52,946 nt of DNA from a virus. Lineage: Duplodnaviria; Caudoviricetes. Below, piece after piece: positions 30,414 through 51,892 of this stretch; position 1 is the stretch's first letter; each line of letters opens with the position of its first letter. The stretch lies in the IMG/VR virus record IMGVR_UViG_3300042465_001424, positions 1 through 52,946 of that record. One strand, 5' to 3'. A model generated the notes under the pieces. That model ran no database searches, was not told where the DNA came from, and was given only the letters and a program-made list of their open reading frames with translations. The position numbers and the translations under genes are program-made.

Positions 30414-33400
30414 ATGCCTATATATACTTATAATGGAGCAATGTTTACGGAAGAAGAAGTAATTAGTAAAGCAGAAGCAAAAGGGCTTGATCTGGAAGCT
30501 TATATTAATAAATTTGGTATAACTAAAGAGGAAGATGAAACCGTTGAGGAGCCGGGAAAGCCAAAACCTGTTGCAAAAAAGGGTGCGCCTGCAACAGCAA
30601 AAGGTACGGCGTCCAAATTGGTAAAACCTTCATCGGAGTTAAAATCTGATATATGGGGAGAAGACAGATCTAAACCTGAATTTTTACAAGAAATACAAAA
30701 AGTATCTCAACCCGATATAAAGTTTCCAAAACCTGTTAGTGTTAAAAAACCAAAACAAGAATTAAAATCTATATCTGAATACCAATCAAAAGTAAAAAAA
30801 GAAGAAGAAAGCGGGTTTTCTAATTTTCTTAAAGAATCATTTGATTCCGGAATTTCTACAATTGTGCAATCTGTTTATAAAGCTCCTGAGTTTTTATATG
30901 ATGCCACTGCTGCATTTATTACAGATCCTATTGCTAATTTAGCAAATGATATTATAGGGGTTGAAAGACAAGATTCTTCTTCGGAAAAAATAATGGAAAC
31001 ATTCGGAATTAAAAACATTCCGGCAGATATTTTACAAAAAAGAATTAAGGAATCAAATAAAATAATACAAGATTATAGTGCTAAAAACGGGGTTGATCCT
31101 TTAACTGCTATAGAGAATGGAAACTATTTAGGAGCAGCAAAACTAGTTGCAGGCGGAACAATTCAATCAGTTCCTATGATGGCGGCAGCTATGTTTAGTG
31201 GTGGAAGTTCAACTGCATTAGCTGGAATATCTGCATCTACAGCAATTTCAAAAGCGGAACAATTAAAAATAGAACAACCTGAAATGGACGTTCAAACTAG
31301 AACTATAAATGCCGCGGCGTCTGGATTGCTGGAAGGATATTTAGGCAATTTATTTACAGGTGCTTCTGGAGCAGTTGTAAAAAGAATATTAACTGATAAA
31401 GGAACTAAAGAAGGGGCAAAAGTTATTTCTAATGGCTTAATGAGTACATTAGAAAAAGCCATTGAAAAAAACCCAATGATTGGTGTACTTGGCGAGGTTG
31501 CTGAAGAAAGTAGTGTTGAATTAGGCAATCAATTAAATGATATAAATTCTGGAATTAGAAAAGAATTAGATTATAGATCAATTACTAATGCCGGTATTAT
31601 TGCAACAGGAATGGCTGGTACAAATACTGTGCCTGTATATGGGGCAAAAGGTTATATGAAAATGGCTGAATATAATCAAGTAAAAGCCATAAACAAAGAA
31701 ATTAATACCTTAACAAATCAATTATCTAATCCTTATATTAATGATTCAGATAAAAAAATAATTTCATCGCGAGTTAATAGACTTGTTGATGAGAATAAAA
31801 CTATTGTAGGAACTAGTCTGGAAAAAATTAAAGCATTACCTGAAAATATAAAAACAGAAATAAATACTATTAATGCAGATTTAGATGATATTAAAAGTAA
31901 ATATTTAGACTTAGCAGACAATGACGCCATACCGTTGGATGTTAAAGCAGCAATGGGTGAAGAATTAAAACTTCAAGGTAAACAATTATATGATAGAAAA
32001 AATAGTATCATTGAAGGTAATTATATATATGAAGACTTTAATAAATTACCAACTGAAGAACAAATTAGAATTAAAGATGTAGCAACTCAAAACTTAGTAG
32101 CAGATTCTGAATTAACTGGTAAACCAAAAACTAGTTTTGCCGATGAAGAAATAAATAAAGAAGCCGTAACTATATATAATAATGAAGTAAAAGCAAAAGA
32201 TTTTGTTTCTGATGTAGAAAAAACAAAAGTTGCTATACAAGCTATTGGTCTTGGTGAAGATGTAGAAATGCCTGAATTAAATTCTGCTAATGATGTTATT
32301 AATTATCTATCAACTAATACTACATTAGACAAGAATACTATAGAAGACGTTGCAGATTCTTATGGTGCATTTATTCCTTTGCCAAATGGTAAAGAAGTAT
32401 TAATTATAAATAAAGAAGCTGCTAACATGGATCAGGTGGTTACAACCGGTCAACATGAATTTTTACATAAACTTATATACAAGGCGGTAAAAGATAATAC
32501 AGATTTACAAAAACAAATAGGGTCTCAATTATATAATCACATTGAGAACTATATTGGTACAGAAGAATTTAATAATACTGAATTTAAAAGTAGATACGAT
32601 GCTTATAAGAATGATTTTGAAAATACTAAATTAGAATTAGATAGTAAAGTAACTAAAGCTAAAGACTTTTTTAATAAAGGACTTATAACTCAAGAAAGAT
32701 ACGACCAAGCCGTAACAGACGCGGATAATGCAACCGCTAAAGCTGAAGGTAAATATCTAGAAGAAACATTGCCATTATTGTCTGAATCATTATCAAAAGG
32801 AGACATAAAATATAATGAAACATTCTTTACTAAAATAGGTGATATATTACGTAGAGTATTCCAAAAATATGGACTAAGCAAAGTAAAGTTTAATACGGGT
32901 AAAGATGTGTTTGATTTTGTTAGAGACTATAATAAAAGTTTTGAAAAAGGTCAATTTACTAAAGCGTTTAAGGCGTTAGCGAAAGAAGGCGTTTATAAAG
33001 GATCTATAGCAAAAGGTAACATTCCAGCAAAGCCAACCGCCAAACCAGAAGTTAAATTATCTAAAATACAAATTGATAAACTTAAACAAGATTTAGTTGA
33101 TTTAGAAGATGAATACGACGAAGGCTACGGAGATATTGATGAGGAAGAATATAAGAATAGAAAAGCCAATATAGAAGGTAAACTTAAAACGGCCGTTAAA
33201 TTAGAAGAAAAAGGTGTTCCTGTTAAGGAAGTGAAAAAAGAAGTAACTGAAGAAGATGAGGTTAAAGAAATAATAAAAAATGCTCGTGGTTCAATATCTT
33301 CAGATAAAGTACAACAAATATATGAATCTAAAGGCGTAAATGGTTCAGCAGAAATAATAAGACTATTTGAGCCTATAACTAAAAAGATTGTTGACAAGCG

Positions 33401-36400
33401 TAGAGATGCTCCGGGTTTTGATAGAGAATTATTAACTGACGAGATAAATACAGGAGTTGGTGGAATTTTAGATTTAATAACTAAATATAAACCTGAATCT
33501 GGTATACCATTAGCTGCTTATATAAATAAGTATTTGCCAGTTAGAGCAATTGCTACTTCAAAAAGAATATTAGATCAACAATTTAATAAGGACGCATCGG
33601 AAGAAAAGGGGCTAATAGCAACTGAGACAGCTGATCAAAACTTTATTGAAACAACAAAAGAAAAACCAAAGTATAAGAATGCATTAGAGTCAAAAGTTTT
33701 TGAACCGGAAGTCTTAAAAACTATAAACGATAAGATATTAACAGTAGTTAGAACTTTAAAATCTAAAATTGATGAGCCTATTTCATTGAATAAAACTATT
33801 ACCCCATTAATTGCTGAAATTAGAGACGAAATTGGTAAGCAAGTTGATATTGATGTTAAAACCGCAATGGGCGGCAAAAAAGACAATCAATTAAAAAATT
33901 GGATGTTAAAGAACAAAAAATATGTTCTTGAAAATATGACTACTACTTGGTTAATGGGTAAAGATGGTCAAGGAGGAATGCCGATTGCGGTTCAAAAACA
34001 AATTGACGGAAGATGGGTTAATTTTCCTGAATGGGCTGGTAAAAAAATTGATAGAGAAAAAACAACTACAGATCAAGCTGGTAGAACTTCTGGCGCTGAA
34101 TTAACTAGAAGATTGCCAAGTGTTAATAATAATATATCTGATGCTGATTACTTAGAACAAGTAATAGGGACTGATGGTAATCCTTTACGTGGCAGAAAAG
34201 AATCATTAGCAAAAGCAATAGCTGAAGAATCGACATTTGATATTATTAATGATGATTTGCAAAATGATGGGCCTATTTCAGAAGCTTTAATAAAGAATCA
34301 GGAAAGACTTGGGGTTCAATTAACAAACAATATTACTAATGAATTTGCAAAGCAAACAGAAAGAGGTAACATTAAATTCTCTAAATCTTTAATAAAAGGA
34401 ATATCTATATCTCAAGATAAGTTAGGCAAAGATATATTCAACGCTAAAACAATTGAAGATGAAGCAAAGGTAATAAGTAAATGGATTGCCAGCGATGGTA
34501 GATCATTAAGAACTTTTGCAGCCATGATTGGTAAACAATTAAGCAAATTAAAAACTAATAAAGGGTTATTTGAAAATATAATATTACCAACAATAAAAAC
34601 TTATTCAAAGTTTGAAGGGTTAGTTGGTAAAGACTCTTATAGATTAGGAGAGGTTTCAAGAGGTATATCTATATTCTTTGGGGAAGAAAAAGTGCCTTTA
34701 TGGAAAGACATTGATGAGATAAAAAATAATTGGGGAAGAAGCGCTCCTATAATGGAGAAGGAAGCAATAAGCGCAAATGATCAATTGTTTGATATAATTA
34801 ATTACTTTAAAAATAACAATTATTCCAATGAAGATTTTGAAGGGTATTTACAATTTTTACGAAAAGATCAAAGAGGCTTAATACGAAAACTTTCAAAACC
34901 GGGTATTGCTGTTATAGGTTTAAATAAAAAACAAAAGCCATACTTAGAGCATAATATGCCGGTACAAAATATTGTTGAAAAAATTCTTGATTTTTATGAC
35001 AATAAAATTACAGAAGATCAATTAAGAGAATTTATTGATAAAGGAAAAGTAAACCTTATTCCAGATGAATTAAATAAACTTTTACCAAATTATGAAGTTG
35101 ATAAAAACAGAATGGAAGACCCAACTGTTTTATTATATTTACAAAATTTATTAGATAAAGGTTTATCTATTTATAATATAAAAGCGGAATATGGATCTAA
35201 AGCTAACTTCAATGCGTTAGTTAAAATTGCTCAATCAAAAGTAAATTCAAAAGAAAATTTACAAAATATATATAATACTATTGCAATAGAAAATTCTTTA
35301 GATGTTAAAAAATCTATTAACCCAAAAGGTATTTCGGTATTTGATTTCGATGACACCGTTGGCATGACTAAAAGTAACGTGTTATACGCGATGCCAGATG
35401 GCACTTTTGGTAAATTAAATGCGGAAGAATTTGCAAAAGAAGGTTCTAATATGCTACAAGAAGGAGCTATATTTGATTTCTCTGAATTTAGCAAAGTTGT
35501 TAATGGCAAACCAGGTCCAATGGTTGAAAAGATGAAGAAGATGATTGGCAAGTTTGGTCCTGAAAACTTCTTTATACTCACGGCTCGCCCTGCTAATGCC
35601 GCGGGTCCAATACATGAGTTTTTATCTTCTATTGGTATTGATATACCTTTAGAAAATATAACTGGCTTAGGAAGCAGTTTAGCGCAATCAAAAGCAGATT
35701 GGATGACAGCGAAAGCAGCAGAAGGATATAATGATTTTTACTTTTCCGACGATGCAATCCAGAATGTTGATGCTGTTAGAAATGCTTTAAACGTTCTTGA
35801 CGTTAAATCAAAAATACAGCAAGCTAAAATTAAATTTAGTAAAACTATATCGCCTGAATTCAATAAGATTATTGAGGAGAATAAAGGTATGGAGCACTAT
35901 AAAGTGTTCTCGGATATTGTTGCAAGAAGAAGAGGTAAGTCTAAAAACAAGTTTGATTTTTATGTTCCACCATCTGCTGCTGATTTTGAATTATTATTGT
36001 ATAACTTCTTAGGTAAAGGTGAACGTGGAGAAGAACATCAAAAATTCTTTAACGAAGCATTACTTAAACCGTATGCAAATGGTAATGATTTGATGGATGC
36101 GGCAAGACAATCTATTAAGAAAGATTATAAAGCATTGTTAGATTCATTCCCAGACATACGTAAGAAAATGGAAACATTAACTCCAGACGGAGATTATACT
36201 TACGATCAAGCAATACGTATTGCAATGTGGAACGAAGAAGGCGTTGAAATACCTGGTATATCCGAAAGAGATTCAAGAAAATTAACAGATTTGGTAAACA
36301 ATGATCCTGAGCTAGCTGCGTTCAAACAAGGCTTAATAGTTACTGGCAGACAAGGTAAAGGATGGATTAACCCTACTGAATACTGGGACGCAAATACTAT

Positions 36401-38075
36401 CATTGCGGATCTACATGGTTTAACAGAAGGTGAAGGACGTAAGAAATTCCTTGCTGAGTTTATTGACAATGCTGAACAAATGTTTGGAACATGGTCTCAA
36501 GGAAAATTGGTTGGCCCTAACATTAACAAAGTAGAAGCCGTATATGGTTCGAATGTAAGAGAAGCTATTGAAGATGTACTGTACAGAATGACAACTGGTA
36601 AAAACAGAAGCCAAGGCAAGGATAAAGAAACAAGCGCTTGGAGTAATTGGGTGAATGGTTCTACTGGAGCTATTATGTTCTTAAACACTAGATCTGCCGC
36701 ATTGCAATTAATTGGGGCAGTCAATTTCTTAAACTTAAGAGATAATAATCCTTTTAACGCTGGTAAAGCATTTCTAAATCAACCGCAATATTGGAAAGAT
36801 TTCTCACGTATTTGGAATTCAGATAAAATGAAAGAAAGACGCGGTGGATTAAAAGAAGATGTTGCCGCTGCTGAGATTGCAAATGCCGCCGCGGGTAGTA
36901 AAAATAAACCTGCTGCTGTTATAGCTTACTTATTAAAAATCGGTTATACGCCGACGCAATTAGCAGATAGTTTTGCTATTGCCTCTGGGGGTGCTCCATT
37001 TTATAGAAATAGAATTAAATCTTATTTGAAAGAAGGATTAACAGAACAAGAGGCGGAAGATGCGGCTTGGAATGATTTTACAAAAGTATCAGATGAAACA
37101 CAACAATCAGGTGATCCTAGAGATATATCAAAACAACAAGCGAGTGGAGCGGGAAGGTTATTATTAACATTCCAAAACACGGCAATGCAACAATCTAGAA
37201 TTGTTAAAAAATCTTATTTAGATCTAAGAGCTGGTAGAGGTAATGCTAAAACACATATTTCAAAAATAGTATATTATTTGGCAGTACAAAATACATTGTT
37301 TGCTGTGTTGCAACAAGGATTATTTGCGGTTGCCTTTGATGATGATGATGAAGAAAAAGATACAGAAAAAGAAAAAGTCAAAAAGAAAACAACTAATGAA
37401 AGATTAATAGATGTCGCTGACGGTGTGTTGGATACAATATTAAGAGGAACCGGATTTGCTGGAGGAGTTGTTTCTGTATTAAAGAACATGACTAAAAAAT
37501 ACCTCGACGAAAAAGATAAAAACTTTAAAGCAGATTATGCTAAAGTTGTATTAGAAGGGGCTAACATATCACCGCCAATTGGATCTAAACTTAGAAAAGT
37601 ATATACTGGACTTCAACAAACTAAATTTGAAAAAGACCTTATAGACGCAAGAGGTTGGGGTGTTATGCAAGATGGAAGAGTTCATTTAGGGCCAATGTAT
37701 GGAGTGGCTGGAAAACTTGCTGAAGCAACAACTAACTTGCCAATTGATAGGCTTGTAAACAAAATTGAAAATATATCTCAAGCAATGAATTCTGAAAATC
37801 AAGCATGGCAAAGAGTTGCTGTAGGAGTTGGGTTTACACCTTATTCAGTTGGTATAGAAGAATCAAAAGGTGATGTAGAAATTAGAGCAAAAGCAAAAGA
37901 AATACGTAAAGAAGAAGGATTAATAAAAAGCGAAGAAACAAGAGAACGTAAAAAAGATTCTATTAGAGCTTTACCAATTAGGGAACGCATTAGAATAAAA
38001 AGAGAGGATAGACTTAAAAGAAGAGAAAACGAATTTAAACGCAGGGAAAGAAAAGCAAATAGAAAAATGGGTTAA
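30414..38075 (+). CDS. Giant polyvalent internal virion protein (zincin, sigma-70 region-2-like and HAD phosphatase domains)
   Basis: 2553 aa. HEFLH at aa 681, sigma2-like segment at aa ~981-1046, HAD motifs DFDDT (aa 1644), ILTAR, K, FSDD. Last gene of the virion module. Confidence 0.7.
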   Translation: MPIYTYNGAMFTEEEVISKAEAKGLDLEAYINKFGITKEEDETVEEPGKPKPVAKKGAPATAKGTASKLVKPSSELKSDIWGEDRSKPEFLQEIQKVSQPDIKFPKPVSVKKPKQELKSISEYQSKVKKEEESGFSNFLKESFDSGISTIVQSVYKAPEFLYDATAAFITDPIANLANDIIGVERQDSSSEKIMETFGIKNIPADILQKRIKESNKIIQDYSAKNGVDPLTAIENGNYLGAAKLVAGGTIQSVPMMAAAMFSGGSSTALAGISASTAISKAEQLKIEQPEMDVQTRTINAAASGLLEGYLGNLFTGASGAVVKRILTDKGTKEGAKVISNGLMSTLEKAIEKNPMIGVLGEVAEESSVELGNQLNDINSGIRKELDYRSITNAGIIATGMAGTNTVPVYGAKGYMKMAEYNQVKAINKEINTLTNQLSNPYINDSDKKIISSRVNRLVDENKTIVGTSLEKIKALPENIKTEINTINADLDDIKSKYLDLADNDAIPLDVKAAMGEELKLQGKQLYDRKNSIIEGNYIYEDFNKLPTEEQIRIKDVATQNLVADSELTGKPKTSFADEEINKEAVTIYNNEVKAKDFVSDVEKTKVAIQAIGLGEDVEMPELNSANDVINYLSTNTTLDKNTIEDVADSYGAFIPLPNGKEVLIINKEAANMDQVVTTGQHEFLHKLIYKAVKDNTDLQKQIGSQLYNHIENYIGTEEFNNTEFKSRYDAYKNDFENTKLELDSKVTKAKDFFNKGLITQERYDQAVTDADNATAKAEGKYLEETLPLLSESLSKGDIKYNETFFTKIGDILRRVFQKYGLSKVKFNTGKDVFDFVRDYNKSFEKGQFTKAFKALAKEGVYKGSIAKGNIPAKPTAKPEVKLSKIQIDKLKQDLVDLEDEYDEGYGDIDEEEYKNRKANIEGKLKTAVKLEEKGVPVKEVKKEVTEEDEVKEIIKNARGSISSDKVQQIYESKGVNGSAEIIRLFEPITKKIVDKRRDAPGFDRELLTDEINTGVGGILDLITKYKPESGIPLAAYINKYLPVRAIATSKRILDQQFNKDASEEKGLIATETADQNFIETTKEKPKYKNALESKVFEPEVLKTINDKILTVVRTLKSKIDEPISLNKTITPLIAEIRDEIGKQVDIDVKTAMGGKKDNQLKNWMLKNKKYVLENMTTTWLMGKDGQGGMPIAVQKQIDGRWVNFPEWAGKKIDREKTTTDQAGRTSGAELTRRLPSVNNNISDADYLEQVIGTDGNPLRGRKESLAKAIAEESTFDIINDDLQNDGPISEALIKNQERLGVQLTNNITNEFAKQTERGNIKFSKSLIKGISISQDKLGKDIFNAKTIEDEAKVISKWIASDGRSLRTFAAMIGKQLSKLKTNKGLFENIILPTIKTYSKFEGLVGKDSYRLGEVSRGISIFFGEEKVPLWKDIDEIKNNWGRSAPIMEKEAISANDQLFDIINYFKNNNYSNEDFEGYLQFLRKDQRGLIRKLSKPGIAVIGLNKKQKPYLEHNMPVQNIVEKILDFYDNKITEDQLREFIDKGKVNLIPDELNKLLPNYEVDKNRMEDPTVLLYLQNLLDKGLSIYNIKAEYGSKANFNALVKIAQSKVNSKENLQNIYNTIAIENSLDVKKSINPKGISVFDFDDTVGMTKSNVLYAMPDGTFGKLNAEEFAKEGSNMLQEGAIFDFSEFSKVVNGKPGPMVEKMKKMIGKFGPENFFILTARPANAAGPIHEFLSSIGIDIPLENITGLGSSLAQSKADWMTAKAAEGYNDFYFSDDAIQNVDAVRNALNVLDVKSKIQQAKIKFSKTISPEFNKIIEENKGMEHYKVFSDIVARRRGKSKNKFDFYVPPSAADFELLLYNFLGKGERGEEHQKFFNEALLKPYANGNDLMDAARQSIKKDYKALLDSFPDIRKKMETLTPDGDYTYDQAIRIAMWNEEGVEIPGISERDSRKLTDLVNNDPELAAFKQGLIVTGRQGKGWINPTEYWDANTIIADLHGLTEGEGRKKFLAEFIDNAEQMFGTWSQGKLVGPNINKVEAVYGSNVREAIEDVLYRMTTGKNRSQGKDKETSAWSNWVNGSTGAIMFLNTRSAALQLIGAVNFLNLRDNNPFNAGKAFLNQPQYWKDFSRIWNSDKMKERRGGLKEDVAAAEIANAAAGSKNKPAAVIAYLLKIGYTPTQLADSFAIASGGAPFYRNRIKSYLKEGLTEQEAEDAAWNDFTKVSDETQQSGDPRDISKQQASGAGRLLLTFQNTAMQQSRIVKKSYLDLRAGRGNAKTHISKIVYYLAVQNTLFAVLQQGLFAVAFDDDDEEKDTEKEKVKKKTTNERLIDVADGVLDTILRGTGFAGGVVSVLKNMTKKYLDEKDKNFKADYAKVVLEGANISPPIGSKLRKVYTGLQQTKFEKDLIDARGWGVMQDGRVHLGPMYGVAGKLAEATTNLPIDRLVNKIENISQAMNSENQAWQRVAVGVGFTPYSVGIEESKGDVEIRAKAKEIRKEEGLIKSEETRERKKDSIRALPIRERIRIKREDRLKRRENEFKRRERKANRKMG

Positions 38076-38107
38076 TAAGAATAGGCACCATACCTAGCGA
38101 TCCATAA

Positions 38108-38148
38108 ATAAAAAAGGGACACTTTAATTAGTGCCCCTTTTTTTTATT
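38108..38148. terminator. Bidirectional Rho-independent terminator
   Basis: AAAAAAGGGACACT-ttaatt-AGTGCCCCTTTTTTTT between the convergent gene arms. Confidence 0.85.
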
Positions 38149-38151
38149 TAA

Positions 38152-38370: not shown

Positions 38371-38379
38371 ATTTATTTA

Positions 38380-43217: not shown

Positions 43218-44921
43218 TTATTCCCAAGGCATTTTTTCTTCAGAACTTATTGCCGGTATATGAGGGATAAAACAACCTGACGCTGGTTCCCATTTAAAAT
43301 GGCATTCAGCCCCATTCTCACCTAAGTTTTGAAACTTACATTTAAGAATCTTTACTTTAACAGTTTTGTCTTCATAGTTTCTGTGAACTAATAAACCATG
43401 ATAAGATGCATCGTACCATTCGCCGCCGCCTTTAATATTGTACATTGTAGGCTCTTCAATATTACCTTTTGAATCTTTGTACATTTTAGTAGGGTGAGCT
43501 ACAATCATAACTAGTACGTCATACTTCTTAGCAAAGATTTCTATCTGGCTTAAGTACTCTAATGTATAAACATTGACATCGCCAGAGGCATCTGCAGATC
43601 TTACTTTGTTAAATGGATCAATGACTAAGCATTTAATTCCTTTACGTTTAACTAGCTCAGCTCCTTTACGTAATACAGATTCTAATGTATAACGTTCCAT
43701 GTCAATAAAGAAATAATTATCATTAACATGATCCGCTACTTGATTCCACTTTTCAGTTTTAATATCTTCAACTCCCGGCATGCCTTGCCATGTTTTACGC
43801 ATTAACTTATGAGCATGCAAATATGTTGGATGATTCTCTGGAGAAGCATAAGCAGTTTTCCAACCATACTTCTCATTATAACCAACAACCATTTGATCTA
43901 CAAAATCAGATTTACCACTGCTGGGTATACCAGTAACAGTAATAAACTGGCTAGTATAAGTTGAAAAAATACTATCAAAATTATCCAACCCAACTTGGAA
44001 ACCTGGTTTAAAACCATTTCGCACAAAGTCCGTGACTTCATCTTCAATGTCTCTGAATGTGGTAACGTTTTCAAGCGGTACAGGCTTTGATCTTGATATT
44101 CTTTGTGATAATGCTTCTTTGCCGTATTTAATTAAGTATTCGTTTGCATCTTTACAATCATCAAACGTTGCAATATAACAAGTTTCTGATCCTAGTCTTC
44201 TTACTAATTCAGTCTGCAAAGCTTGACCAGCCGCGTCTGAATCAACTGCAATAATAATCTTTGTTTTGTCTTCAAAATAATCAATACAATTATCTAAGTA
44301 CTCAAGATTGTTTGTGCCTAATGTTGCGCCGTTTGGAACAGATATTGCATTAGTGATTCCTGCTTCATGTAATGCTAACACGTCCATTTCGCCTTCAACA
44401 ATTACACAATATTCAAATCCTACAATGCTGTTAATATTATAGAATACTTTTTCAGCTCCCTTGAATAATTTAAAATGCTTGTGTCCATCTCTGTATTTTA
44501 CATTGATAAGTTGATCGCCAATGAAATAATTGAAATGTATAGCATTTTCAGTCTTACCAGTTTGAGGCATAAATTCAGGCCCCTCTGTAACTTGTAACTC
44601 TGTTAATGTTTGCTCTGATATTCCTCTACTATTAAACCATTCAACAACTTTTGAAGTAGCCGGAAGTAAAAGCGATGTTGGTCTAACATAAACTTTTTCG
44701 CTTGCTCCTTTACGTTGATAGGTATGTAATTGAAAAGTCTTACTACAGTTGTGACAAGTTCCTATACCACGTTCCCAGTCATAAGAAGCACACTTTGCTT
44801 TCTCATTCTTAGGTTTTCTGTCTGGCGAGCATATTGGACAAATGCCTTGAGACTTTCCTTCTTCAAGCTTATGTTGATTGAATTGGTCAATCAAAAAACC
44901 ATTTATCTCTGTTGTTTGCAT
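43218..44921 (-). CDS. Primase-helicase (T7 gp4/Twinkle-like)
   Basis: CPIC...CHNC zinc finger, TOPRIM EGEMD and DSD, Walker A GIPSSGKS, VIDP, AHP. Confidence 0.92.
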   Translation of the reverse strand: MQTTEINGFLIDQFNQHKLEEGKSQGICPICSPDRKPKNEKAKCASYDWERGIGTCHNCSKTFQLHTYQRKGASEKVYVRPTSLLLPATSKVVEWFNSRGISEQTLTELQVTEGPEFMPQTGKTENAIHFNYFIGDQLINVKYRDGHKHFKLFKGAEKVFYNINSIVGFEYCVIVEGEMDVLALHEAGITNAISVPNGATLGTNNLEYLDNCIDYFEDKTKIIIAVDSDAAGQALQTELVRRLGSETCYIATFDDCKDANEYLIKYGKEALSQRISRSKPVPLENVTTFRDIEDEVTDFVRNGFKPGFQVGLDNFDSIFSTYTSQFITVTGIPSSGKSDFVDQMVVGYNEKYGWKTAYASPENHPTYLHAHKLMRKTWQGMPGVEDIKTEKWNQVADHVNDNYFFIDMERYTLESVLRKGAELVKRKGIKCLVIDPFNKVRSADASGDVNVYTLEYLSQIEIFAKKYDVLVMIVAHPTKMYKDSKGNIEEPTMYNIKGGGEWYDASYHGLLVHRNYEDKTVKVKILKCKFQNLGENGAECHFKWEPASGCFIPHIPAISSEEKMPWE

Positions 44922-44946
44922 TTATTTAATTTAATTGTTACATATA

Positions 44947-44980
44947 TATTATCAAATTACAATCGTGTTTAGATTGTAAG
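44947..44980 (-). promoter_or_regulatory. Class A promoter-like repeat, copy 1
   Basis: TTACA-atct-AAACACGAT-tgtaatt-TGATAATA upstream of the primase-helicase. Confidence 0.75.
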
Positions 44981-44999
44981 AACTACTTATTCTAGATAG

Positions 45000-45022
45000 A
45001 AAAACCCCAATTAATGGGGTTT
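45000..45022 (-). terminator. Rho-independent terminator
   Basis: AAACCCCA-ttaat-TGGGGTTTTT on the - strand, just upstream of class A copy 1. Confidence 0.7.
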
Positions 45023-45034
45023 AACTAACTACAA

Positions 45035-45130
45035 AAAGCTGTCCAGACTAGATCCTACTTTCGCTGTCTAGAGTTCGTCCTGCTTTAAAAAAAAGACTTA
45101 TATGCTGATCTTACGGTAAGCATTATAAGT
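45035..45130 (-). ncRNA. Candidate structured RNA (two hairpins)
   Basis: Stem ACTTATAATGCT...AGCATATAAGT and stem AAAGC/TCTAGAC...GTCTGGA/GCTTT. The G-U pairing works on the - strand. Confidence 0.35.
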
Positions 45131-45147
45131 ACAATTATATTTTAGAA

Positions 45148-45690
45148 CTATCCTATATAGTTATCGCTTTTTCTCAAATTGTCTATTGCGAATAAAGGTT
45201 GGATATTTGAATAATGTGAATATATAAATAACTCTTCATTAGTTTTACACCAACTTAAAGGAACTATATGATCCAAATGCCATTCACTCATGTTATCCCA
45301 ACTCATTCCATTAACAAATTTTGATTCTATATATTTAAAAAATTCAGTATGAGAACAACCTAATAACGTACTAGAATTTACTCTTTTGTTTAATAAAGAA
45401 TATGCGGCTGTTCTTATTCTATGCTTTAATTTCCTAGCCGGATCTTGCATTTTTTTTCTATTAGCATCCTTATAGTTTAATCTAGCATATTTTTCTCTAC
45501 CTCTTTGCTGTTCAGCTTTTACAAAGCGTGGATCACCTATACGTTCTTCGTAATTTTTAGATCGTTGTATTTTTACACACACTTTGCATCTGTGTAACAC
45601 GCCGTGCTCACCGGATGTATGCTTATAAAAATTAGATAAACTTAGTGTATTTTTACACCCTATACATTCTATTTCCATGTTTGTAATCAC
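45148..45690 (-). CDS. HNH endonuclease
   Basis: N-terminal CxxC...CxxC. C-terminal WHLDHIVP...HYSNIQPL...NLRK. Confidence 0.85.
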   Translation of the reverse strand: MITNMEIECIGCKNTLSLSNFYKHTSGEHGVLHRCKVCVKIQRSKNYEERIGDPRFVKAEQQRGREKYARLNYKDANRKKMQDPARKLKHRIRTAAYSLLNKRVNSSTLLGCSHTEFFKYIESKFVNGMSWDNMSEWHLDHIVPLSWCKTNEELFIYSHYSNIQPLFAIDNLRKSDNYIG

Positions 45691-45696
45691 TTAAAG

Positions 45697-46011
45697 TTAA
45701 AAAGGGAGATCGAAATCAGGAGCAGGAGCTCGTTGTGCAGGTTGTGATTGTCCACCATCAGTTCTTGGAGCAACTGCAACGTTGTCTCCATTCGTCCATA
45801 CTACTTTTACATTTCCAAGATAAACTTTTGCTGCTTTCGCGTCACGTTCTTCTTTTGATTGTTCTACTAAAATTGGACCTTGATTTCCAAATTGATCAAC
45901 TTCGTCATTAATTGTAATTGTAATTGGTAAGTACTTTCCTTTAGCACCATCAATAATTTTGTGCTTAGGAATTTGATTTAAATTTATGGATGCTTTCAAT
46001 ATTGTAGCCAT
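45697..46011 (-). CDS. Putative single-stranded DNA-binding protein
   Basis: 104 aa, GAKGKY and YLGN motifs, flexible tail ending DFDLPF. Confidence 0.7.
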   Translation of the reverse strand: MATILKASINLNQIPKHKIIDGAKGKYLPITITINDEVDQFGNQGPILVEQSKEERDAKAAKVYLGNVKVVWTNGDNVAVAPRTDGGQSQPAQRAPAPDFDLPF

Positions 46012-46015
46012 TTTT

Positions 46016-46375
46016 TTATAGTTTTAATTGATTATTATTAGTTAAATAGTTCACTGCTTTTAATACTCCTTCAAGATTATCACCTAAAAATCCAATACCA
46101 GAATTACAAGACATACATAGTATTCCTCTTATGTTATTTGTTTCATGGCAATGATCAATATATGTTGATCTCTTATCAAGTATTTCTTTACTGCAACAAT
46201 GGCAATTAGTACTATCCATCAATGATTGGGCTTGATCTAATGTTATTTTATAATTCCTTGCTCTTGATGATAAACATTCGCAAGCTTTACATCTTGATTT
46301 TAATCTACCCGTATCTGTTCTATTATAGAACTCTGTTAATGGTAATTCTAATTTGCAATAGGTGCATGCTTTCAT
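46016..46375 (-). CDS. Endonuclease VII-family protein
   Basis: CHCC...IDHCH...RGILCMSCNSGIG. Confidence 0.85.
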   Translation of the reverse strand: MKACTYCKLELPLTEFYNRTDTGRLKSRCKACECLSSRARNYKITLDQAQSLMDSTNCHCCSKEILDKRSTYIDHCHETNNIRGILCMSCNSGIGFLGDNLEGVLKAVNYLTNNNQLKL

Positions 46376-46376
46376 A

Positions 46377-47108
46377 TTATAATGTTCGAGTTACTAAAAA
46401 TTGGTTAGGATCGAAATCCTCTGTTTTATAAAATAAGTCGTAAGCTTCTACAGCTCGCATAACTTTGTCTTCTCCATTTTGTAAGAATTTATCTGAACAA
46501 TCAAATATTCCTATCTGATGTGTACCTTTGTCTATAGCCATAAAAATCATATCATATCCAAACAGTTTTTTATAAATGTATGCTTGACTATCATAATTAT
46601 ATTTCTTAGCTGAATAAGCAAAGTCTGTTATGTTAGAAGTTGTTTTAAGATCTACAATCAATCCTTCATCATGATTTATAATATCTGCTTTACCTTTCCA
46701 CATTGCTCCGAATAATTCAACAATACCTGGAACTTCATACTCAACATTAAATCCTCTTATAAGATCTTTACAAATATTGTTCGCAAGCATTGTATCCTTC
46801 ATTAATTCAATTCGGTCAGCTTCGTGTTGTAGCAGACATATTTCACCTCCAGATGCTTCTTTGTATATATTTGTATTCCTAGTTGATGCTTTGATAATTT
46901 TGTATTTATCTAGTTTATCAGGTTCAAGTATGGCGGTGTGAAAATAACCGCCAATTACAAAGTTAGGATTAGGATCTTGTGGAGCATTCATTAACGCAGG
47001 ATTAGTAAGCAATGCAGATATGTTTGAGTTGCTTAGAAAATTGCGGCCGAATGTTCCATAATAATCTTCATCGTTTTTTAACTTCTCTAGTATTTCTTCT
47101 TTAGTCAT
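46377..47108 (-). CDS. RecE/Exonuclease VIII-like PD-(D/E)xK exonuclease
   Basis: LSNSNI, FHTAILEP, KGKAD, VDLKTT, YDSQAYIY. Confidence 0.8.
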   Translation of the reverse strand: MTKEEILEKLKNDEDYYGTFGRNFLSNSNISALLTNPALMNAPQDPNPNFVIGGYFHTAILEPDKLDKYKIIKASTRNTNIYKEASGGEICLLQHEADRIELMKDTMLANNICKDLIRGFNVEYEVPGIVELFGAMWKGKADIINHDEGLIVDLKTTSNITDFAYSAKKYNYDSQAYIYKKLFGYDMIFMAIDKGTHQIGIFDCSDKFLQNGEDKVMRAVEAYDLFYKTEDFDPNQFLVTRTL

Positions 47109-47109
47109 A

Positions 47110-47658
47110 CTATAGTTTAGATAAGATTAATTCTGCCTCTTCAGATAATGTATACTTAGCTTTGATTGTATCAAGTTTACCGCCTGTAGTTACAAACTGT
47201 AATGCTTTGTCAAACGCTGCATCACTTACATCAAGTTTTGCTTTTGCAACAGGTTCTGCTTTACCATGATCCGCGTCTTGAGTATCATCAATTAAGAATA
47301 GATTCCCTAATGCATACTTCTTACCATAACTTGACGCTGAACCAAACTTCTGGGGCATTTGCATTCCTTTTTGATCAAGATCAACCCCAACTATAGCTAC
47401 AGCATGTATAGCACTATCTCCATCGGAAATTGTTGCTGTAGACTTTAGTATAGGGAATAATTGATTTGATTCTACAAGTTCTTCGGTTACAATAACTGAT
47501 ACGCCGAGTCTTAATAAAAATGGTTTAGTTGCTTCCAATATATCTTCTGCCGATCTAAAATTGTATTTTCCAAATGAATTAAACCTAGATTTTTTAGACT
47601 TAAATTCAGTCTGTATAATCGCTAGTTTTTCATTTAATGTTTGTTCTGTTTTTGCCAT
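47110..47658 (-). CDS. ERF-family single-strand annealing protein
   Basis: FGKYNFRSAEDIL and QKFGSASSYGKKYAL...DD. Confidence 0.85.
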   Translation of the reverse strand: MAKTEQTLNEKLAIIQTEFKSKKSRFNSFGKYNFRSAEDILEATKPFLLRLGVSVIVTEELVESNQLFPILKSTATISDGDSAIHAVAIVGVDLDQKGMQMPQKFGSASSYGKKYALGNLFLIDDTQDADHGKAEPVAKAKLDVSDAAFDKALQFVTTGGKLDTIKAKYTLSEEAELILSKL

Positions 47659-47685
47659 ATAATTTGATTTAATTGTTTAGTTTCT

Positions 47686-47710
47686 ATATTAATATAATTA
47701 CGTATTTTTT
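47686..47710 (-). promoter_or_regulatory. Candidate class B motif (TACGTAAT)
   Basis: AAAAAATACGTAATTATATTAATAT upstream of ERF. Shares AATACGTAAT with the 18875-18884 copy. Confidence 0.45.
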
Positions 47711-47728
47711 ATTTAATTTACATTTAAC

Positions 47729-48493
47729 TTATAGGTAATCAAGGACTTGAGAGGGTTCTACGTTGTCAATTAACTTTTTAATTGCTTGTTTTTTTATCTC
47801 TGAAATTCTTACATAAGCGCTTGCCCCTTCGATACCTAATTTATCCGCTATCTCATTTGCCGAATACTTATCACAGTCTAATCCATAACTTAATCTTAAT
47901 ACTTCATACTCACGTTCATTTAAGTGTTTAGTCAATAGACTCTTTAAATATAAATTCATAAGGTTTATATTATAAGGCTCAGTTTGATCCGGAATTTGAT
48001 AAAGCATGTTATCTTCGTCGTCATCATTAATCTGTTCATCGATGCTTAAGAATATGGAATTAAAAAACATTGCAACCATCGTATGGTCTTTGCCATTATC
48101 TTTTCTAATTTCATTTAGTTTATGTTCTGGAATCTTAATTGAGCCTCTATTAATATCAATAGCACGTCTAATTGAGCCTTTAATTCTTTTTGATAGAAAC
48201 GACTTAATAGTTTTTTCTTGATCAGTAGAAGCGTTTAATGTATCCCATTCAATTTTATCAACAGCTAGTATTAACCCCATAGATCCATGTTGCATAAGAT
48301 CCGTAATATCTAGTACTCCGCACGCTTGGGTTGTAGTTGAAAACTTCTTTGCAATATTCTCTACCAAAGGTAAAAACTTAGCAATAAGCCGGTCCCTTGG
48401 GTATGATTGAAAATCATTATTTAAACTATCTTTATTAGTTTGTTTAATATCTTCTTTGTATCTAATGTAATTTGGTATATTGTAACTTTTCAT
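47729..48493 (-). CDS. RNA polymerase sigma-70-family factor
   Basis: Region 2 (LPLVENIAKK...DLMQHGSMGLILAVDK...RIKGSIRRAI) and region 4 (LNEREYEVLRLSYGL...EIADKLG...RISEIKKQAIKKL). Confidence 0.9.
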   Translation of the reverse strand: MKSYNIPNYIRYKEDIKQTNKDSLNNDFQSYPRDRLIAKFLPLVENIAKKFSTTTQACGVLDITDLMQHGSMGLILAVDKIEWDTLNASTDQEKTIKSFLSKRIKGSIRRAIDINRGSIKIPEHKLNEIRKDNGKDHTMVAMFFNSIFLSIDEQINDDDEDNMLYQIPDQTEPYNINLMNLYLKSLLTKHLNEREYEVLRLSYGLDCDKYSANEIADKLGIEGASAYVRISEIKKQAIKKLIDNVEPSQVLDYL

Positions 48494-48494
48494 A

Positions 48495-48695
48495 TTAATT
48501 TCTATTTTGTTTTATATTATTTTTCCATTCAATCCAAAATCCAATTGCAACTATTATATTCATCCAAAACGATACAATAATTTCATAAATATCTTTATAT
48601 ATATTCATAGTTAAATGAACATGCCCAATAACCCAGAAAGGTATTGCTAAATTACTTGCAAACCAAGTTATAAAAAATGTTATAAATTGTTTCAT
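48495..48695 (-). CDS. Small membrane protein
   Basis: 66 aa with two hydrophobic segments. Confidence 0.55.
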   Translation of the reverse strand: MKQFITFFITWFASNLAIPFWVIGHVHLTMNIYKDIYEIIVSFWMNIIVAIGFWIEWKNNIKQNRN

Positions 48696-49312
48696 AAACT
48701 TTGGTTTAATAATTCTTTTTCTTTTTTTAATTCATTACCCATATTGCGATGTATAGTTCTTGGTGTACAATCAAAATGATCAGCTAATTTCTTAATTGTA
48801 ATCTTTTGATTCAGATCATGAGTGTATAGCATCGCATCATAAATATCAGATTCAGTAACACGCTTAGTTTTACCAATCATTTTTCCTACTATAGATAACT
48901 TCTCACTCAAAGTTAATTTACAGTTATCCTTAAATATAATCTTACGAGTTTTATTATGAGGAGGTTCATCAAGATCTTTCAAAGAAACATCATACATCAT
49001 GCTCTGCAATAATTGTTCACTAACATTAAATGTTACAAAACCATTTTGTTTATCACATATATGCCTTACTATTGTTTCAAACTCATCCTGATCTACATTA
49101 GGATTCAAATACCATATAACATACAAATGCCATTTCAATGCTTTATATGTTGGTATCTTAGCCTTGCTTCTAAATAGTTCATAACATTCAGTAGTACCAC
49201 TTTCATAGAAAGAACCCCATTCAAATGTTTCAGTTGGTTTATCATTAATTGGTCCACGTCTATATATCACTCTTCGCTTGTTTAAATATTCTATGTTACG
49301 ATTGTATGACAT
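48692..49312 (-). CDS. DNA-binding protein with C-terminal HTH
   Basis: ITIKKLADHFDCTPRTIHRNM helix-turn-helix. Confidence 0.65.
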   Translation of the reverse strand: MSYNRNIEYLNKRRVIYRRGPINDKPTETFEWGSFYESGTTECYELFRSKAKIPTYKALKWHLYVIWYLNPNVDQDEFETIVRHICDKQNGFVTFNVSEQLLQSMMYDVSLKDLDEPPHNKTRKIIFKDNCKLTLSEKLSIVGKMIGKTKRVTESDIYDAMLYTHDLNQKITIKKLADHFDCTPRTIHRNMGNELKKEKELLNQSL

Positions 49313-49351
49313 TAGCTTACTATTTTTTATATTAATTGGCTAGTGTCACAC
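49304..49351. repeat. 13-bp imperfect inverted repeat around a 22-bp AT-rich spacer
   Basis: GTATGACATTAGC ... GCTAGTGTCACAC (11/13 match), overlapping the HTH gene start codon. Confidence 0.65.
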
Positions 49352-49375
49352 TTTATATTACTCTAGTCCTAGTTG

Positions 49376-49609
49376 TTATTTTAAACTGGTTTTAAGTTTA
49401 TTTATTTTTTCTTGTATTTCAGCCATTTTTTCATATTGCTCTGCTTCTAAATAATCAGCCTTAACTAAATTCAACGCAACTATCTCTGCCAGTACAGCCT
49501 CGCGGTCTGTTGTAGTAATGTAATGAGTATTTTTATCCCATTCTTCTTGCTTTTTAAGCATCTTTTGAAATACTAATTCCGCAATTCGTTCCATTTGATA
49601 TTCTGTCAT
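49376..49609 (-). CDS. Small protein with UVR (UvrB/UvrC)-like motif
   Basis: C-terminal LEAEQYEKMAEIQEKINKL. Confidence 0.55.
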   Translation of the reverse strand: MTEYQMERIAELVFQKMLKKQEEWDKNTHYITTTDREAVLAEIVALNLVKADYLEAEQYEKMAEIQEKINKLKTSLK

Positions 49610-49614
49610 ATGTT

Positions 49615-49830
49615 TTATTTTATATTATTATCATTAATTGATCGTGTTTCTATTGTAAGCTTTTTTAGATTAGCTTTTAATTTATTAAACTCTTTTTCTG
49701 TTGAGTTACGTTCATTAAGGCATCGATCACAATATAAATCATTAGTAGGTTTGCCTACAGTAATAATTGTTCTACATAAATGGCAAAGTGTTGCCCCTCT
49801 ACCATTATTAAACTTGTGAATCGGCTTCAT
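49615..49830 (-). CDS. Small zinc-finger protein
   Basis: KFNNGRGATLCHLC...CDRC. Confidence 0.6.
   Translation of the reverse strand: MKPIHKFNNGRGATLCHLCRTIITVGKPTNDLYCDRCLNERNSTEKEFNKLKANLKKLTIETRSINDNNIK
49626..49659 (-). promoter_or_regulatory. Class A promoter-like repeat, copy 2
   Basis: TTACA-atag-AAACACGAT-caattaa-TGATAATA in the 3' end of the zinc-finger ORF, upstream of the operon leading to sigma. Confidence 0.75.
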
Positions 49831-50080
49831 CTCGTCGTTTTAAAATTTCTTTACAGTCTTTAATAGTGTATATACCCTGGGCTGTATTATCTAATGGGAA
49901 TACAAGCGTATTATCAGGTAATCTACTAGCTAATGAATTCATCCACCTACTATTATGCATTGTTCTAAAAAATACTTTTTCAAAGAATGAAGTATCTATA
50001 TAGTCATGTAAATCGCCATTCTCATCTACTAATTTACTTAATTCTACTTGTCGTTGAGGTATTCCAAATGTTGTACTCAT
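49808..50080 (-). CDS. Hypothetical protein
   Basis: 90-aa ORF in the operon. Confidence 0.6.
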   Translation of the reverse strand: MSTTFGIPQRQVELSKLVDENGDLHDYIDTSFFEKVFFRTMHNSRWMNSLASRLPDNTLVFPLDNTAQGIYTIKDCKEILKRRDEADSQV

Positions 50081-50175
50081 TTTTTTTCTTTTTTAATTGT
50101 TTCTTGTTTAGGTTCTTCAGGTCCGCAGTCACAATAAGTTGTATGGCCGCAATAACATTTAGTTTCTTCTTTCAT
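50077..50175 (-). CDS. 32-aa Cys-rich mini-protein (absent from ORF track)
   Basis: MKEETKCYCGHTTYCDCGPEEPKQETIKKEKK with ATGA overlaps at both ends. Confidence 0.7.
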   Translation of the reverse strand: MKEETKCYCGHTTYCDCGPEEPKQETIKKEKK

Positions 50176-50849
50176 ATTTCTACTATATTACCATTGCTTG
50201 TTAATTTTCCAAACTTACCATCTGTCACTACTGATCCATTACTAAACCAAGTATCATAAGCACTTAGTTTTAACATTCCTGCATTAATAATATCTTTGCA
50301 GTTATGAATATGACCAAACATCATATACTTTGGCTGCATTTCCAATACTAAATTCAACAAAGACTTATCGCCACAAGATTCCATATTGTTATTGCGGTCA
50401 AAAGACTTGTCTAAGCAACCTTTAGGCGGCCCGTGAACAACAATTATGTCGCATGGCTCGTGTATAGCAAGCTTCCAGAATCTTTCAAGTTTAACGCGAT
50501 CTTTCATGAACGCCCATTGCCCGAACTGTGGCGTGTGTGGTGATCCAAAGATTTTAATATCTTCAATAGTTACGTATTCATTTTCTAAATATATAATGTT
50601 GTAGTCTTCAAAATCTTTTTTAGTTACTAATCCTTTCTCAATACTAGTATCGTGATTACCTGCTACATAAATTTTATGTTTAATAGGTAATTCTTTATAC
50701 CAATGAATGAATTCTCTAACTTCTGGTTCATTATTGTATGGATCACGTGGATTGCTACAATCACCAGAATGTATCACTAAATCAATTCCTTCAGGAATAG
50801 TTAGTAAGTCATGATACATGTGTGTATCTGATATGTGCCATATTCTCAT
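50172..50849 (-). CDS. Calcineurin-like metallophosphoesterase
   Basis: DTH, GD, GNHD, HGPP, GHIH motifs. Confidence 0.9.
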   Translation of the reverse strand: MRIWHISDTHMYHDLLTIPEGIDLVIHSGDCSNPRDPYNNEPEVREFIHWYKELPIKHKIYVAGNHDTSIEKGLVTKKDFEDYNIIYLENEYVTIEDIKIFGSPHTPQFGQWAFMKDRVKLERFWKLAIHEPCDIIVVHGPPKGCLDKSFDRNNNMESCGDKSLLNLVLEMQPKYMMFGHIHNCKDIINAGMLKLSAYDTWFSNGSVVTDGKFGKLTSNGNIVEI

Positions 50850-51019
50850 AATTCTTTTTCTTCTATGAATTCTTTAAATCCGTTTATAATTGTTGATTGG
50901 TCAAAGGTAGCAGATATTAACAAGCCATAAAATATTTCTATATATTCGTTTACACTAGCATCTTCGTAATTAGTTTCAACAGACATTTTTTTACCGTAAT
51001 TTTCAATTGTTATTTTCAT
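50846..51019 (-). CDS. 57-aa hypothetical protein (absent from ORF track)
   Basis: MKITIENYGKK...EEKEL with ATGA overlaps at both ends. Confidence 0.7.
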   Translation of the reverse strand: MKITIENYGKKMSVETNYEDASVNEYIEIFYGLLISATFDQSTIINGFKEFIEEKEL

Positions 51020-51213
51020 AATTTATTATCTTTTTCTATTAATTTAAATATATAACTCCATACTTCCATTTCAAATCTATCGCGAGCATTTAATTCTAAT
51101 TGCCTATCTTTATCAACTTTCCAATACAAACCTGTATCATTAGCATCTCTTGTTGCTTGTATTAAGCATGATTCAATTTTTTCTCTTGCGGCTTCTTTTA
51201 CTTTATCTTTCAT
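51016..51213 (-). CDS. Hypothetical protein
   Basis: 65-aa ORF in the operon. Confidence 0.6.
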   Translation of the reverse strand: MKDKVKEAAREKIESCLIQATRDANDTGLYWKVDKDRQLELNARDRFEMEVWSYIFKLIEKDNKL

Positions 51214-51214
51214 A

Positions 51215-51688
51215 TTATATAGGTCTTGTGATTATACTTTCGTTTGAGTTTCTTACATTTACTTTTTCTGCTTCATAATAATTCCAGTATGCTTCAACGC
51301 TATCACCAGGAACTTTGTATTGATCAGGCATACATTGAGGCATTGGTGTTAAATCAACTTTAGTTACATTTTTAGGAGACTTGCTTAGTACTCCACCACA
51401 CTTTATAATTGTTAAATGTGTTTTATTATAACGTCTGGTATATTCTTCACCAAGCGCTATCATATGATCATACAACCATTTGTAATTAGAGGTAGACTCT
51501 CGTGCCCATATTGCTGACGGATGATTCTTGTGAGTAACTTTATAAGGAACATCAGCAGATTCGCCATCAGATATTACATGCGCAGTACACAATAATTGTG
51601 CAGATTCTAGGATCATTTTTACTACATGCTTGTTATACATATACTTAGCCGCTTTTTCAGGGTCCGTAGATAAATAAAATATATTCAT
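51215..51688 (-). CDS. Pyrimidine-dimer DNA glycosylase (DenV-like) family protein
   Basis: MNIFYL...KHVVKMILESAQLL...THKNHPSAIW...EYTRRY. Confidence 0.75.
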   Translation of the reverse strand: MNIFYLSTDPEKAAKYMYNKHVVKMILESAQLLCTAHVISDGESADVPYKVTHKNHPSAIWARESTSNYKWLYDHMIALGEEYTRRYNKTHLTIIKCGGVLSKSPKNVTKVDLTPMPQCMPDQYKVPGDSVEAYWNYYEAEKVNVRNSNESIITRPI

Positions 51689-51690
51689 AA

Positions 51691-51834
51691 TTAAAATTTA
51701 GTTATTAATAATTCTTTTGTTTTAAATTGAGGAAATAAAGTTTTATATTTTTTTATTGCTTCAACTTTAGTATAATAGTAATATCTCATTATATACTTTT
51801 CTGATATATAATCATACGGTTGTATTGTTATCAT
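51691..51834 (-). CDS. 47-aa hypothetical protein (absent from ORF track)
   Basis: MITIQPYDY...LLITKF fills the gap between class A copy 3 and the glycosylase gene. Confidence 0.5.
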   Translation of the reverse strand: MITIQPYDYISEKYIMRYYYYTKVEAIKKYKTLFPQFKTKELLITKF

Positions 51835-51859
51835 GATTAAATTGTTTTTGTTACATTAA

Positions 51860-51892
51860 TATTATCAATCTTTGATCGTGTTTAGACTGTAA
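51860..51892 (-). promoter_or_regulatory. Class A promoter-like repeat, copy 3
   Basis: TTACA-gtct-AAACACGAT-caaagat-TGATAATA. Confidence 0.75.

Follow-up and report, generated by a model that had tools for sequence, protein, structure and literature searches.

Which factor reads the first promoters of a phage whose own sigma gene stands behind those promoters? The question is raised by the viral sequence IMGVR_UViG_3300042465_001424 (Duplodnaviria; Caudoviricetes), whose analysed stretch of 52,946 nucleotides is called the window here. The window belongs to a podovirus-like phage with a whole genome of ~66 kb, and its completeness is estimated at 82% in the IMG/VR virus record. The plus strand (positions 1–38075) carries the genes for the tail fibre, GroEL/GroES, terminase, portal, structural proteins, and a crAss-muzzle-like protein, and its last gene is an open reading frame (ORF) of 2553 amino acids (aa), called the giant ORF below. 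The early and DNA-metabolism genes lie on the minus strand, from 52818 down to 38380, and encode a DenV-like glycosylase, a phosphoesterase, the sigma factor, ERF, an exonuclease, endonuclease VII, a primase-helicase, ThyA, MazG, and ribonucleotide reductase. Two promoter-like motifs, termed class A and class B, accompany these genes. Our leading model, put forward tentatively from sequence analysis, is a relay in which a sigma-like module of the giant protein would be ejected with the DNA and read class A, and the encoded sigma factor would then read class B.

The alignment of the three class A copies of the window gave a consensus of ~44 bp, TTACA-N6-AYACGA-N9-GATAATAT-N2-ATGTAAC, in which the upstream TTACA is ~20 bp from GATAAT. 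The copies end 15–30 nt 5' of an ATG, and all three are on the minus strand: copy 1 (51850–51893) precedes the DenV-like gene, copy 2 (49616–49659) opens the gene run holding the sigma gene, and copy 3 (44937–44980) precedes the primase-helicase operon. A terminator-like hairpin at 45002–45022 (minus strand) closes the sigma/ERF/exonuclease run just before copy 3. The pattern ACACGA-N9-GATAATA occurs three times on the minus strand (44947–44968, 49626–49647, and 51860–51881), is absent from the plus strand of the window, and gave no match there in a reversed-pattern control. When one mismatch was allowed, five larger relatives had 9–13 class A copies on the early strand and 0–1 on the other (controls, 0). 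Exact AYACGA-N9-GATAATA was present in 20 of 20 further records at 1–13 copies each (154 in total; controls, 0), and each of these records carries class A on one strand only. The distant clade, represented by G027 and G028, retains class A in 5 and 7 exact copies, respectively, and the element varies between TTGATAAT and GGATAAT, the latter as in the relative G019. In G002, a complete relative with terminal repeats (66,285 bp) that is collinear with the window, a divergent junction marks the beginning of the early strand, where two class A copies stand in tandem. We conclude from its sequence and placement that class A is a general early promoter, which would also drive the primase-helicase and nucleotide-metabolism operon.

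Some further observations concern the surroundings of class A. The hairpin at copy 3 (TTACAATC...GATTGTAA) was rejected as a general N4-like hairpin promoter, as it is absent from copies 1 and 2 and from other positions in the relatives, and the sigma-54 and extracytoplasmic function (ECF) readings of class A were ruled out on spacing, by eye. Just 5' of copy 1, the GC-rich segment 51894–52033 (minus strand) contains a perfect look-alike of a tRNA T-arm (GGGGTTCGATTCCCC followed by TTTT). It gave no ARAGORN or Rfam match and might represent a tRNA remnant, an unusual tRNA, or a terminator; the early region of the Flavobacterium phage elemoA has a tRNA-Ala. At the divergent junction of G002 (48.46–48.83 kb, L023 8460–8830, a region not in the window), the first class A copies are preceded by ACAAATAATAAAG.AAGGGGT, repeated three times, and by clustered GCGTAT(A/G)G repeats; this part may be an origin or packaging region. 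Long hairpins of G002 (L023 7620–7680 and 8880–8940) have AAGTGYGACRYTAG as their arms. One half-copy of this sequence lies in the window at 49340–49353 (minus strand), flanked by the small ORF that follows class A copy 2 and by the gene of the 206-aa protein described below, and its count in the window is not above chance.

The stand-alone sigma gene (47729–48493, minus strand) encodes 254 aa with regions 2 and 4, as identified with Pfam, PHROG, and NCBIfam. It matched NCBIfam TIGR02937 with 59.1 bits (cut-off 42.9) over aa 33–241, Pfam Sigma70_r4 with 25.4 bits (cut-off 24.1), and PHROG 351 "RNA polymerase sigma factor" at 1e-23; the Pfam Sigma70_r2 match, at 21 bits, was under its cut-off of 24. 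By these profile matches, it is a true sigma-70-family gene. The search for homologues returned at least 8000 candidates with E ≤ 0.001, the best 120 of which all have 254 aa and 80–100% identity, and a tblastn search of 50,697 isolate phages found no close homologue. The gene lies 1.1 kb downstream of class A copy 2, in the run that starts there, as an earlier note on this DNA had described; in the relatives, the nearest upstream class A copy is 1.6–4.6 kb away. The sequence directly 5' of the gene in 17 relatives is coding and varies between loci, with no conserved promoter-like sequence among them. Because nothing conserved stands directly upstream and the nearest class A is 1.1–4.6 kb away, the arrangement indicates that the sigma factor is expressed by read-through from class A. 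Between copy 2 and the sigma gene, the ORF 48692–49312 (minus strand), conserved in G002, encodes a 206-aa protein with a weak C-terminal helix-turn-helix (HTH) match (HTH_11, E 0.0015, below the cut-off), which is a possible co-regulator.

The same note had placed a different motif directly after the sigma gene and before late genes, and this was borne out. The class B consensus is ACGTAAT-N8-TATA. The copy at 47685–47703 (minus strand) comes directly after the sigma stop, 27 nt upstream of the ERF start, and includes the exact 17-mer ACGTAATTATATTAATA at 47687–47703; 13 of 17 relatives have ACGTAATTATA in this position. Three further copies precede late genes on the plus strand: one at 5178–5194, 22 nt before the GroEL/GroES operon (conserved in G002), one at 8519–8538, 22 nt before gene 8560 (conserved in G002, G004, and G005), and an N7 variant (18880) within 18878–18896, with a hairpin after it and gene 18942 47 nt downstream (conserved in G002–G005 and the distant G028). 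These three late-strand sites are kept at orthologous places in G002–G005, and two of them also in G028, where the copy after the sigma gene is absent. GTAAT-N8-TATA occurs six times in the window versus 1.83 times expected, a number reached in 0 of 100 shuffles; three of the matches are intergenic and face a gene (5178 and 8522 on the plus strand, 47685 on the minus strand), and three are within coding sequence. The pattern used initially for class B was not above chance, and the strict 17-mer was rejected as a multi-copy class since there is one exact copy per genome and its 3-mismatch matches equal the controls; the gapped form was adopted instead. Judged by these counts and by its conservation, class B is real but sparse (3–5 copies per genome) and compact, like a −10-only promoter.

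A stem-loop was seen between the sigma stop and class B in the records L005, L006, L007, L017 (~10770–10815), L001, L004, L014, L009, and L010, and not in the window. Its loop is conserved (AAAATATACTAAATA), and the stems vary yet keep pairing (GTCCCA/TGGGAC, TGTAGCA/TGTTACA, and TGTTAGC/AGTTAACA). This stem-loop between sigma and ERF could serve as an attenuator or for processing.

To compare class A with promoters of the host type, we took the host to be a flavobacterium on the sole basis that the terminase/portal DNA resembles, with 67–69% identity, that of Flavobacterium (elemo), Cellulophaga, Tenacibaculum, and Maribacter podoviruses. The sigmaA of Flavobacteriaceae reads TAnnTTTG at −12 to −5 (PMC9723704), and for the searches the Bacteroidota sigmaA consensus was taken as TTG at −33 and TAnnTTTG at −7. 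The TAnnTTTG box was found in 0 of 21 upstream regions in the window (reversed control, 1), 0 of 33 in G002 (0), 1 of 32 in G003 (3), 2 of 37 in G004 (0), 1 of 43 in G005 (2), 1 of 30 in G027 (2), and 1 of 35 in G028 (1), which is the background level. The same search gave 15 of 34 regions in elemoA (reversed control, 3) and 8 of 23 in MW202828 (0; 50 kb of its 60.8 kb). These two phages have the same genome layout and contain neither class A nor the sigma gene, nor the sigma-like module by a hidden Markov model (HMM) search. All matches to TTG-N17-21-TAnnTTTG in the clade of the window are in coding sequence. Sites of the TTGACA-N17-TATAAT type are not enriched in 38000–52946 either (79 versus 79.8 expected over shuffles). 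No RNA polymerase family was recognised among the 48 ORFs of the window or, by Pfam only, among 30 further ORFs of G002.

The premise of the earlier note that class A is not host-type held in these searches for an assumed flavobacterial host, with none of 21 regions in the window and 0–2 of 30–43 in the six relatives carrying the box. The alternative given in the note, read-through from an upstream host-type promoter outside the window, is opposed by G002, where the early strand starts with the tandem class A copies and the divergent junction has no TTG-N17-21-TAnnTTTG. These searches indicate that both the early and the late promoters are phage-specific. Since the only encoded sigma factor lies behind class A, a reader of class A would therefore have to be present at time zero.

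The candidate for this reader is a part of the giant ORF (30414–38075, plus strand), the last gene of the structural block, which follows the terminase, portal, structural, and crAss-muzzle-like genes. The whole ORF matches no Pfam or PHROG family. It has more than 1250 homologues in metagenomes, with lengths of 1404–3504 aa and a variable domain content. Giant genes occupy the same place in elemoA (3694 aa) and MW202828 (3859 aa). Residues 251–593 match the syntenic elemoA protein with a pairwise E of 3e-9, and no significant match was found to the MW202828 counterpart. The elemoA protein is annotated as "structural protein", a label whose basis was not seen. An HExxH motif at aa 681–685 (32454–32468) is the signature of a zincin-like metallopeptidase, seen as a motif only and with no profile match; the two H and the E of the motif, together with a downstream E, show at least 90% conservation among 43 homologues. 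At the motif level, the ORF thus has the features of polyvalent proteins, being large and multidomain and having both a zincin-like HExxH and a downstream Glu, and we regard its product as a Polyvalent-type, probable virion or ejection protein.

Two side observations belong to this block. The C-terminus of the protein encoded at 26136–27686 (plus strand) matches the C-terminal domain of the crAss-virus muzzle protein, PF25729, with 28 bits (cut-off 27), which ties the tail of the clade to crAss-like phages, ejectors of cargo proteins. In the giant ORF, the stretch around a DxDxT motif at aa 1644–1648 (35343–35357) resembles by eye, and with no profile support, a small fold of the haloacid dehalogenase (HAD) phosphatase type; the polyvalent protein may have an additional effector domain here.

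The sigma-like part of the giant protein spans aa ~955–1064 (33276–33605, plus strand) and was identified through an AlphaFold2 (AF2) model and structure and language-model searches. The AF2 model, made with 43 sequences, has a mean predicted local distance difference test (pLDDT) value of 80. For the model residues 16–125, VIA-align placed sigma region 2 domains on top among 48,161 chains: SigB with Z 7.8 (root mean square deviation 2.7, 87 residues aligned), sigma32 and pro-sigmaK with Z 7.7 each, and SigI6 with Z 7.6, followed by the T4 gp55 complex (7d7d_F, Z 7.1) and AR9 gp226 (7s01_A, Z 6.1), although the tool warns that Z values of 7–8 are within the chance range for helical bundles. 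Foldseek against PDB returned almost exclusively sigma factors at weak E-values of 0.1–1.5, and against BFVD, it put phage sigma factors on top (best E 0.02). In the ESM Atlas, the domain scored 0.97 to "Sigma-70 region 2" clusters, with 27 of the 30 matches in that set, and it shared 166 features, where same-family pairs typically share 170. An hhalign comparison with the sigma factor of the phage itself aligned the expected helices in the correct register (P 0.0084 but Prob 4.8%), and the HMM of the domain found, after the giant proteins, region 2 of stand-alone sigma factors next (E 0.05–1.2). Taken from these models and comparisons, a sigma region 2-like fold of aa ~955–1064 is probable.

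Within the close clade, no part of the giant protein is better conserved than the module: aa 940–1340 are 70–95% identical in the best 120 of the 1250 homologues, and 457 representative clusters were obtained for this region. The sequence KYKPE..G.PLAAYINKYL..R.I, which aligns to sigma regions 2.2–2.4, has been retained in a homologue with an overall identity of 31%. The binding prediction for giant aa 947–1069 with residues 200–380 of the beta' subunit of Flavobacterium johnsoniae gave a score of 0.14 (mark, 0.32). Directly after the sigma-like domain follows a conserved orphan domain, "dom2" (aa ~1080–1320; 33651–34373, plus strand), with invariant residues and an AF2 predicted template modelling score (pTM) of 0.80. 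It has no fold match (best Z 4.5, with only weak winged-helix/HTH rows) and no Atlas match.

In the relay that we tentatively prefer, the giant protein would travel inside the capsid and be ejected together with the DNA, and its own zincin-like domain may cut it. The sigma-like module would then bind the host core RNA polymerase and start class A transcription without new protein synthesis. Class A transcription would yield the encoded sigma factor, which would direct the same core enzyme to class B and so turn on the recombination and late genes. The arrangement at class A copy 3, where a terminator is followed by a promoter, was counted in favour of this relay. Injected polyvalent proteins have been described as processed by zincin-like peptidases and as able to "jump-start transcription" (PMC5512222), a theme that the relay, by analogy, fits.

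Several observations weigh against this assignment. Sequence methods did not call the domain a sigma factor: a permissive Pfam search of seven segments of the giant ORF found no Sigma70_r2 at E up to 10, and no sigma was found by NCBIfam, by single-sequence and 43-sequence profile searches of PDB sequences, or by a full-length hhalign comparison. The Z values of the fold matches carry the warning given above, and no region 4 is recognisable in the module of the giant protein, though class A is multipartite. The virion sigma-like domain of the earlier note is accordingly supported in its fold, by structure and language-model searches, and not by sequence profiles; its virion status is probable, as read from position and synteny, and three segments of the giant protein had no tblastn match in 50,697 isolate phage records. 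The module also evolves, as far as the sequences indicate, much faster than its supposed target: its identity drops to 28–31% in G027 and G028, in which the sigma factor retains 74% and class A has not changed. In G019, dom2 was not detected, and of the module just the sigma-like part was found (39% identity), and yet ACACGA persists. ACACGA-N9-GATAATA is kept in G027, G028, and G019 alike, and the stand-alone sigma is 60–74% identical across these three. Moreover, the primase-helicase and nucleotide-metabolism genes behind class A would need sustained expression from what would be few ejected molecules, and the reading of class A as not host-type assumes a flavobacterial host. The co-occurrence in relatives proposed as a check was found, and it extends to class A, the sigma gene, and the sigma-like module together, with class A in 25 of 25 close relatives examined and the sigma gene in 19 of 20 tested. 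It leaves the assignment of readers where it was, because features that share ancestry within a clade are uninformative on which factor reads which motif.

Three other explanations have to be weighed against these data. It is possible, if rather doubtful, that the host RNA polymerase reads class A with a host sigma factor, either the primary one of a host that is only assumed to be a flavobacterium or an alternative one, and that the encoded sigma reads class B in the manner of SPO1. The sigma-like fold of the giant protein would then compete with the host sigma for the core enzyme (host shut-off) or be a helical scaffold. Such a division is the default design of sigma-encoding phages. It agrees with a domain that sequence profiles do not call sigma and with a module that is strongly divergent while class A is fixed. 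On the other hand, class A has neither a TAnnTTTG box nor the −35/−10 spacing of the sigma-70 type, related phages without a sigma gene do use TAnnTTTG boxes, and it is the sigma-like module that is best conserved in the giant protein within the close clade (70–95% identity).

An explanation that we consider unlikely lets the encoded sigma, through its regions 2 and 4, read the multipartite class A and amplify its own operon, while a T4 gp55-type factor with region 2 only reads class B. The first round would come from the ejected module, a packaged sigma protein, or leaky host transcription, and the class B reader would possibly be the module of the giant protein or another regulator, e.g., the 206-aa HTH protein. 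The upstream TTACA at ~20 bp from GATAAT suits a two-domain sigma, the sigma (74%) matches the invariant class A more closely in its conservation than the giant's module does (~30%), the class B copy after the sigma gene is missing in the distant clade, and T4 gp55 is among the fold matches (Z 7.1). However, a third reader would be needed, or else the dependence becomes circular, with the giant gene in the late operon behind class B, and there is no other kind of conserved promoter in front of the sigma gene. Finally, the giant protein could be a cryptic RNA polymerase carried in the virion, as in N4- or crAss-type phages, with the sigma-like fold as its promoter-recognition part and class A as its promoter. 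Its genome position and size are those of N4-like and crAss-like virion polymerases, a crAss muzzle-like domain is encoded two genes upstream, and class A is long and phage-specific. This explanation is nevertheless very improbable: the giant ORF contains no DxDGD polymerase motif, its seven segments match no polymerase family at E up to 10 (the fold models covered aa 940–1340), and the full-length profile of 43 giant homologues finds no polymerase among solved structures.

The relay would be a variant of kinds already known, namely phage sigma cascades and ejected transcription proteins. SPO1 gp28 followed by gp33/34 and T4 gp55 are phage sigma cascades that act on the host core RNA polymerase. 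As proposed here, an early-made phage protein of the sigma-70 family redirects the host core to later promoters in those phages. Their early promoters, however, are read by the host primary sigma, whereas no host-type promoter was found here, and a second sigma-like domain is present within a giant protein of the structural block. For SPO1, the cascade on the host core enzyme is described in PMC13401047. AR9 gp226 (PDB 7s01; 7s01_A, Z 6.1) likewise uses a remote sigma region 2-like fold in promoter recognition; sigma-like subunits of the AR9 type work with phage-encoded beta/beta' homologues, in contrast to the present phage, which encodes none. Among ejected proteins, gp66 of the crAss-like phage phi14:2 is a virion RNA polymerase that enters with the DNA. 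The virion polymerases of N4 and crAss-like phages resemble the present case in being giant proteins at the end of the structural block and in their phage-specific early promoters. They differ in that here there is only a sigma region 2-like fold, with no polymerase motif or family detected, so the host core would still be needed. The N4 vRNAP is a virion RNA polymerase ejected with the DNA (PMC13434306), and N4-like polymerases have a fused zincin-like peptidase domain (PMC5512222), which is a further likeness.

The polyvalent proteins of phages and conjugative elements (Iyer et al. 2017, PMC5512222) are alike in being very large and multidomain, with HExxH...E and a variable length and domain content, and they are thought to be delivered with the DNA (PMC5512222). 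Unlike in the giant protein, a sigma-like domain is not described for them in the main text of that paper, where the word "sigma" occurs 0 times; its supplements could list more. T4 Alt, an injected ADP-ribosyltransferase, modifies the host RNA polymerase (PMC5512222). Like the proposed module, Alt is packed in the capsid and acts on the host polymerase at time zero, favouring phage early promoters. Unlike it, Alt is an enzyme and concerns host-type promoters, whereas a specificity factor for promoters that are not host-type is proposed here. No report of a virion-borne sigma factor came up in our literature searches, whose results were confined to virion polymerases, T4, and SPO1; the supplements of PMC5512222 could list more domains.

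The start of transcription by polymerase-less phages in Bacteroidota, where the primary sigma reads unusual promoters, is an open question. Host-type promoters and an ejected polymerase are the known answers for such phages, and the clade studied here appears to use neither. With a probability somewhat short of an even chance, the phage delivers a sigma-like specificity module, rather than a polymerase, in a giant ejected capsid protein, captures the host core at time zero on promoters that the host cannot read, and then hands over to a conventional encoded sigma factor. If this is true, the phage would provide the first sigma carried in a virion, the N4 and crAss virion polymerases would have a lighter counterpart, and the sigma-like domain would extend the catalogue of functions of injected polyvalent proteins. 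The clade is large, with more than 1250 giant homologues and at least 8000 sigma homologues, and class A and class B would provide compact, orthogonal promoter–factor pairs for flavobacterial genetics.

The clade is abundant in marine and freshwater metagenomes. Three metatranscriptome runs from two studies (marine and freshwater libraries) contain 8–10% of the words of 43000–52900. The matching contigs are relatives, mostly 88–95% alike; no transcript starts are visible in them, and RNA and carried-over DNA are indistinguishable from the contigs. Approximately 13 kb of G002 (42.5–55.9 kb) has no counterpart in the window. Searches of the window for tRNA and Rfam families gave no match. No DNA polymerase family was found among the scanned ORFs (the whole window and 40–56 kb of G002), and replication may rely on the host DNA polymerase; the primase-helicase, ERF, exonuclease, and nucleotide-metabolism genes are present in spite of this. 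The window also encodes GroEL and GroES (5216–7017, plus strand) together with a second, longer GroES-like protein of 198 aa (9917–10513, plus strand), and this combination is common to elemoA and MW202828.

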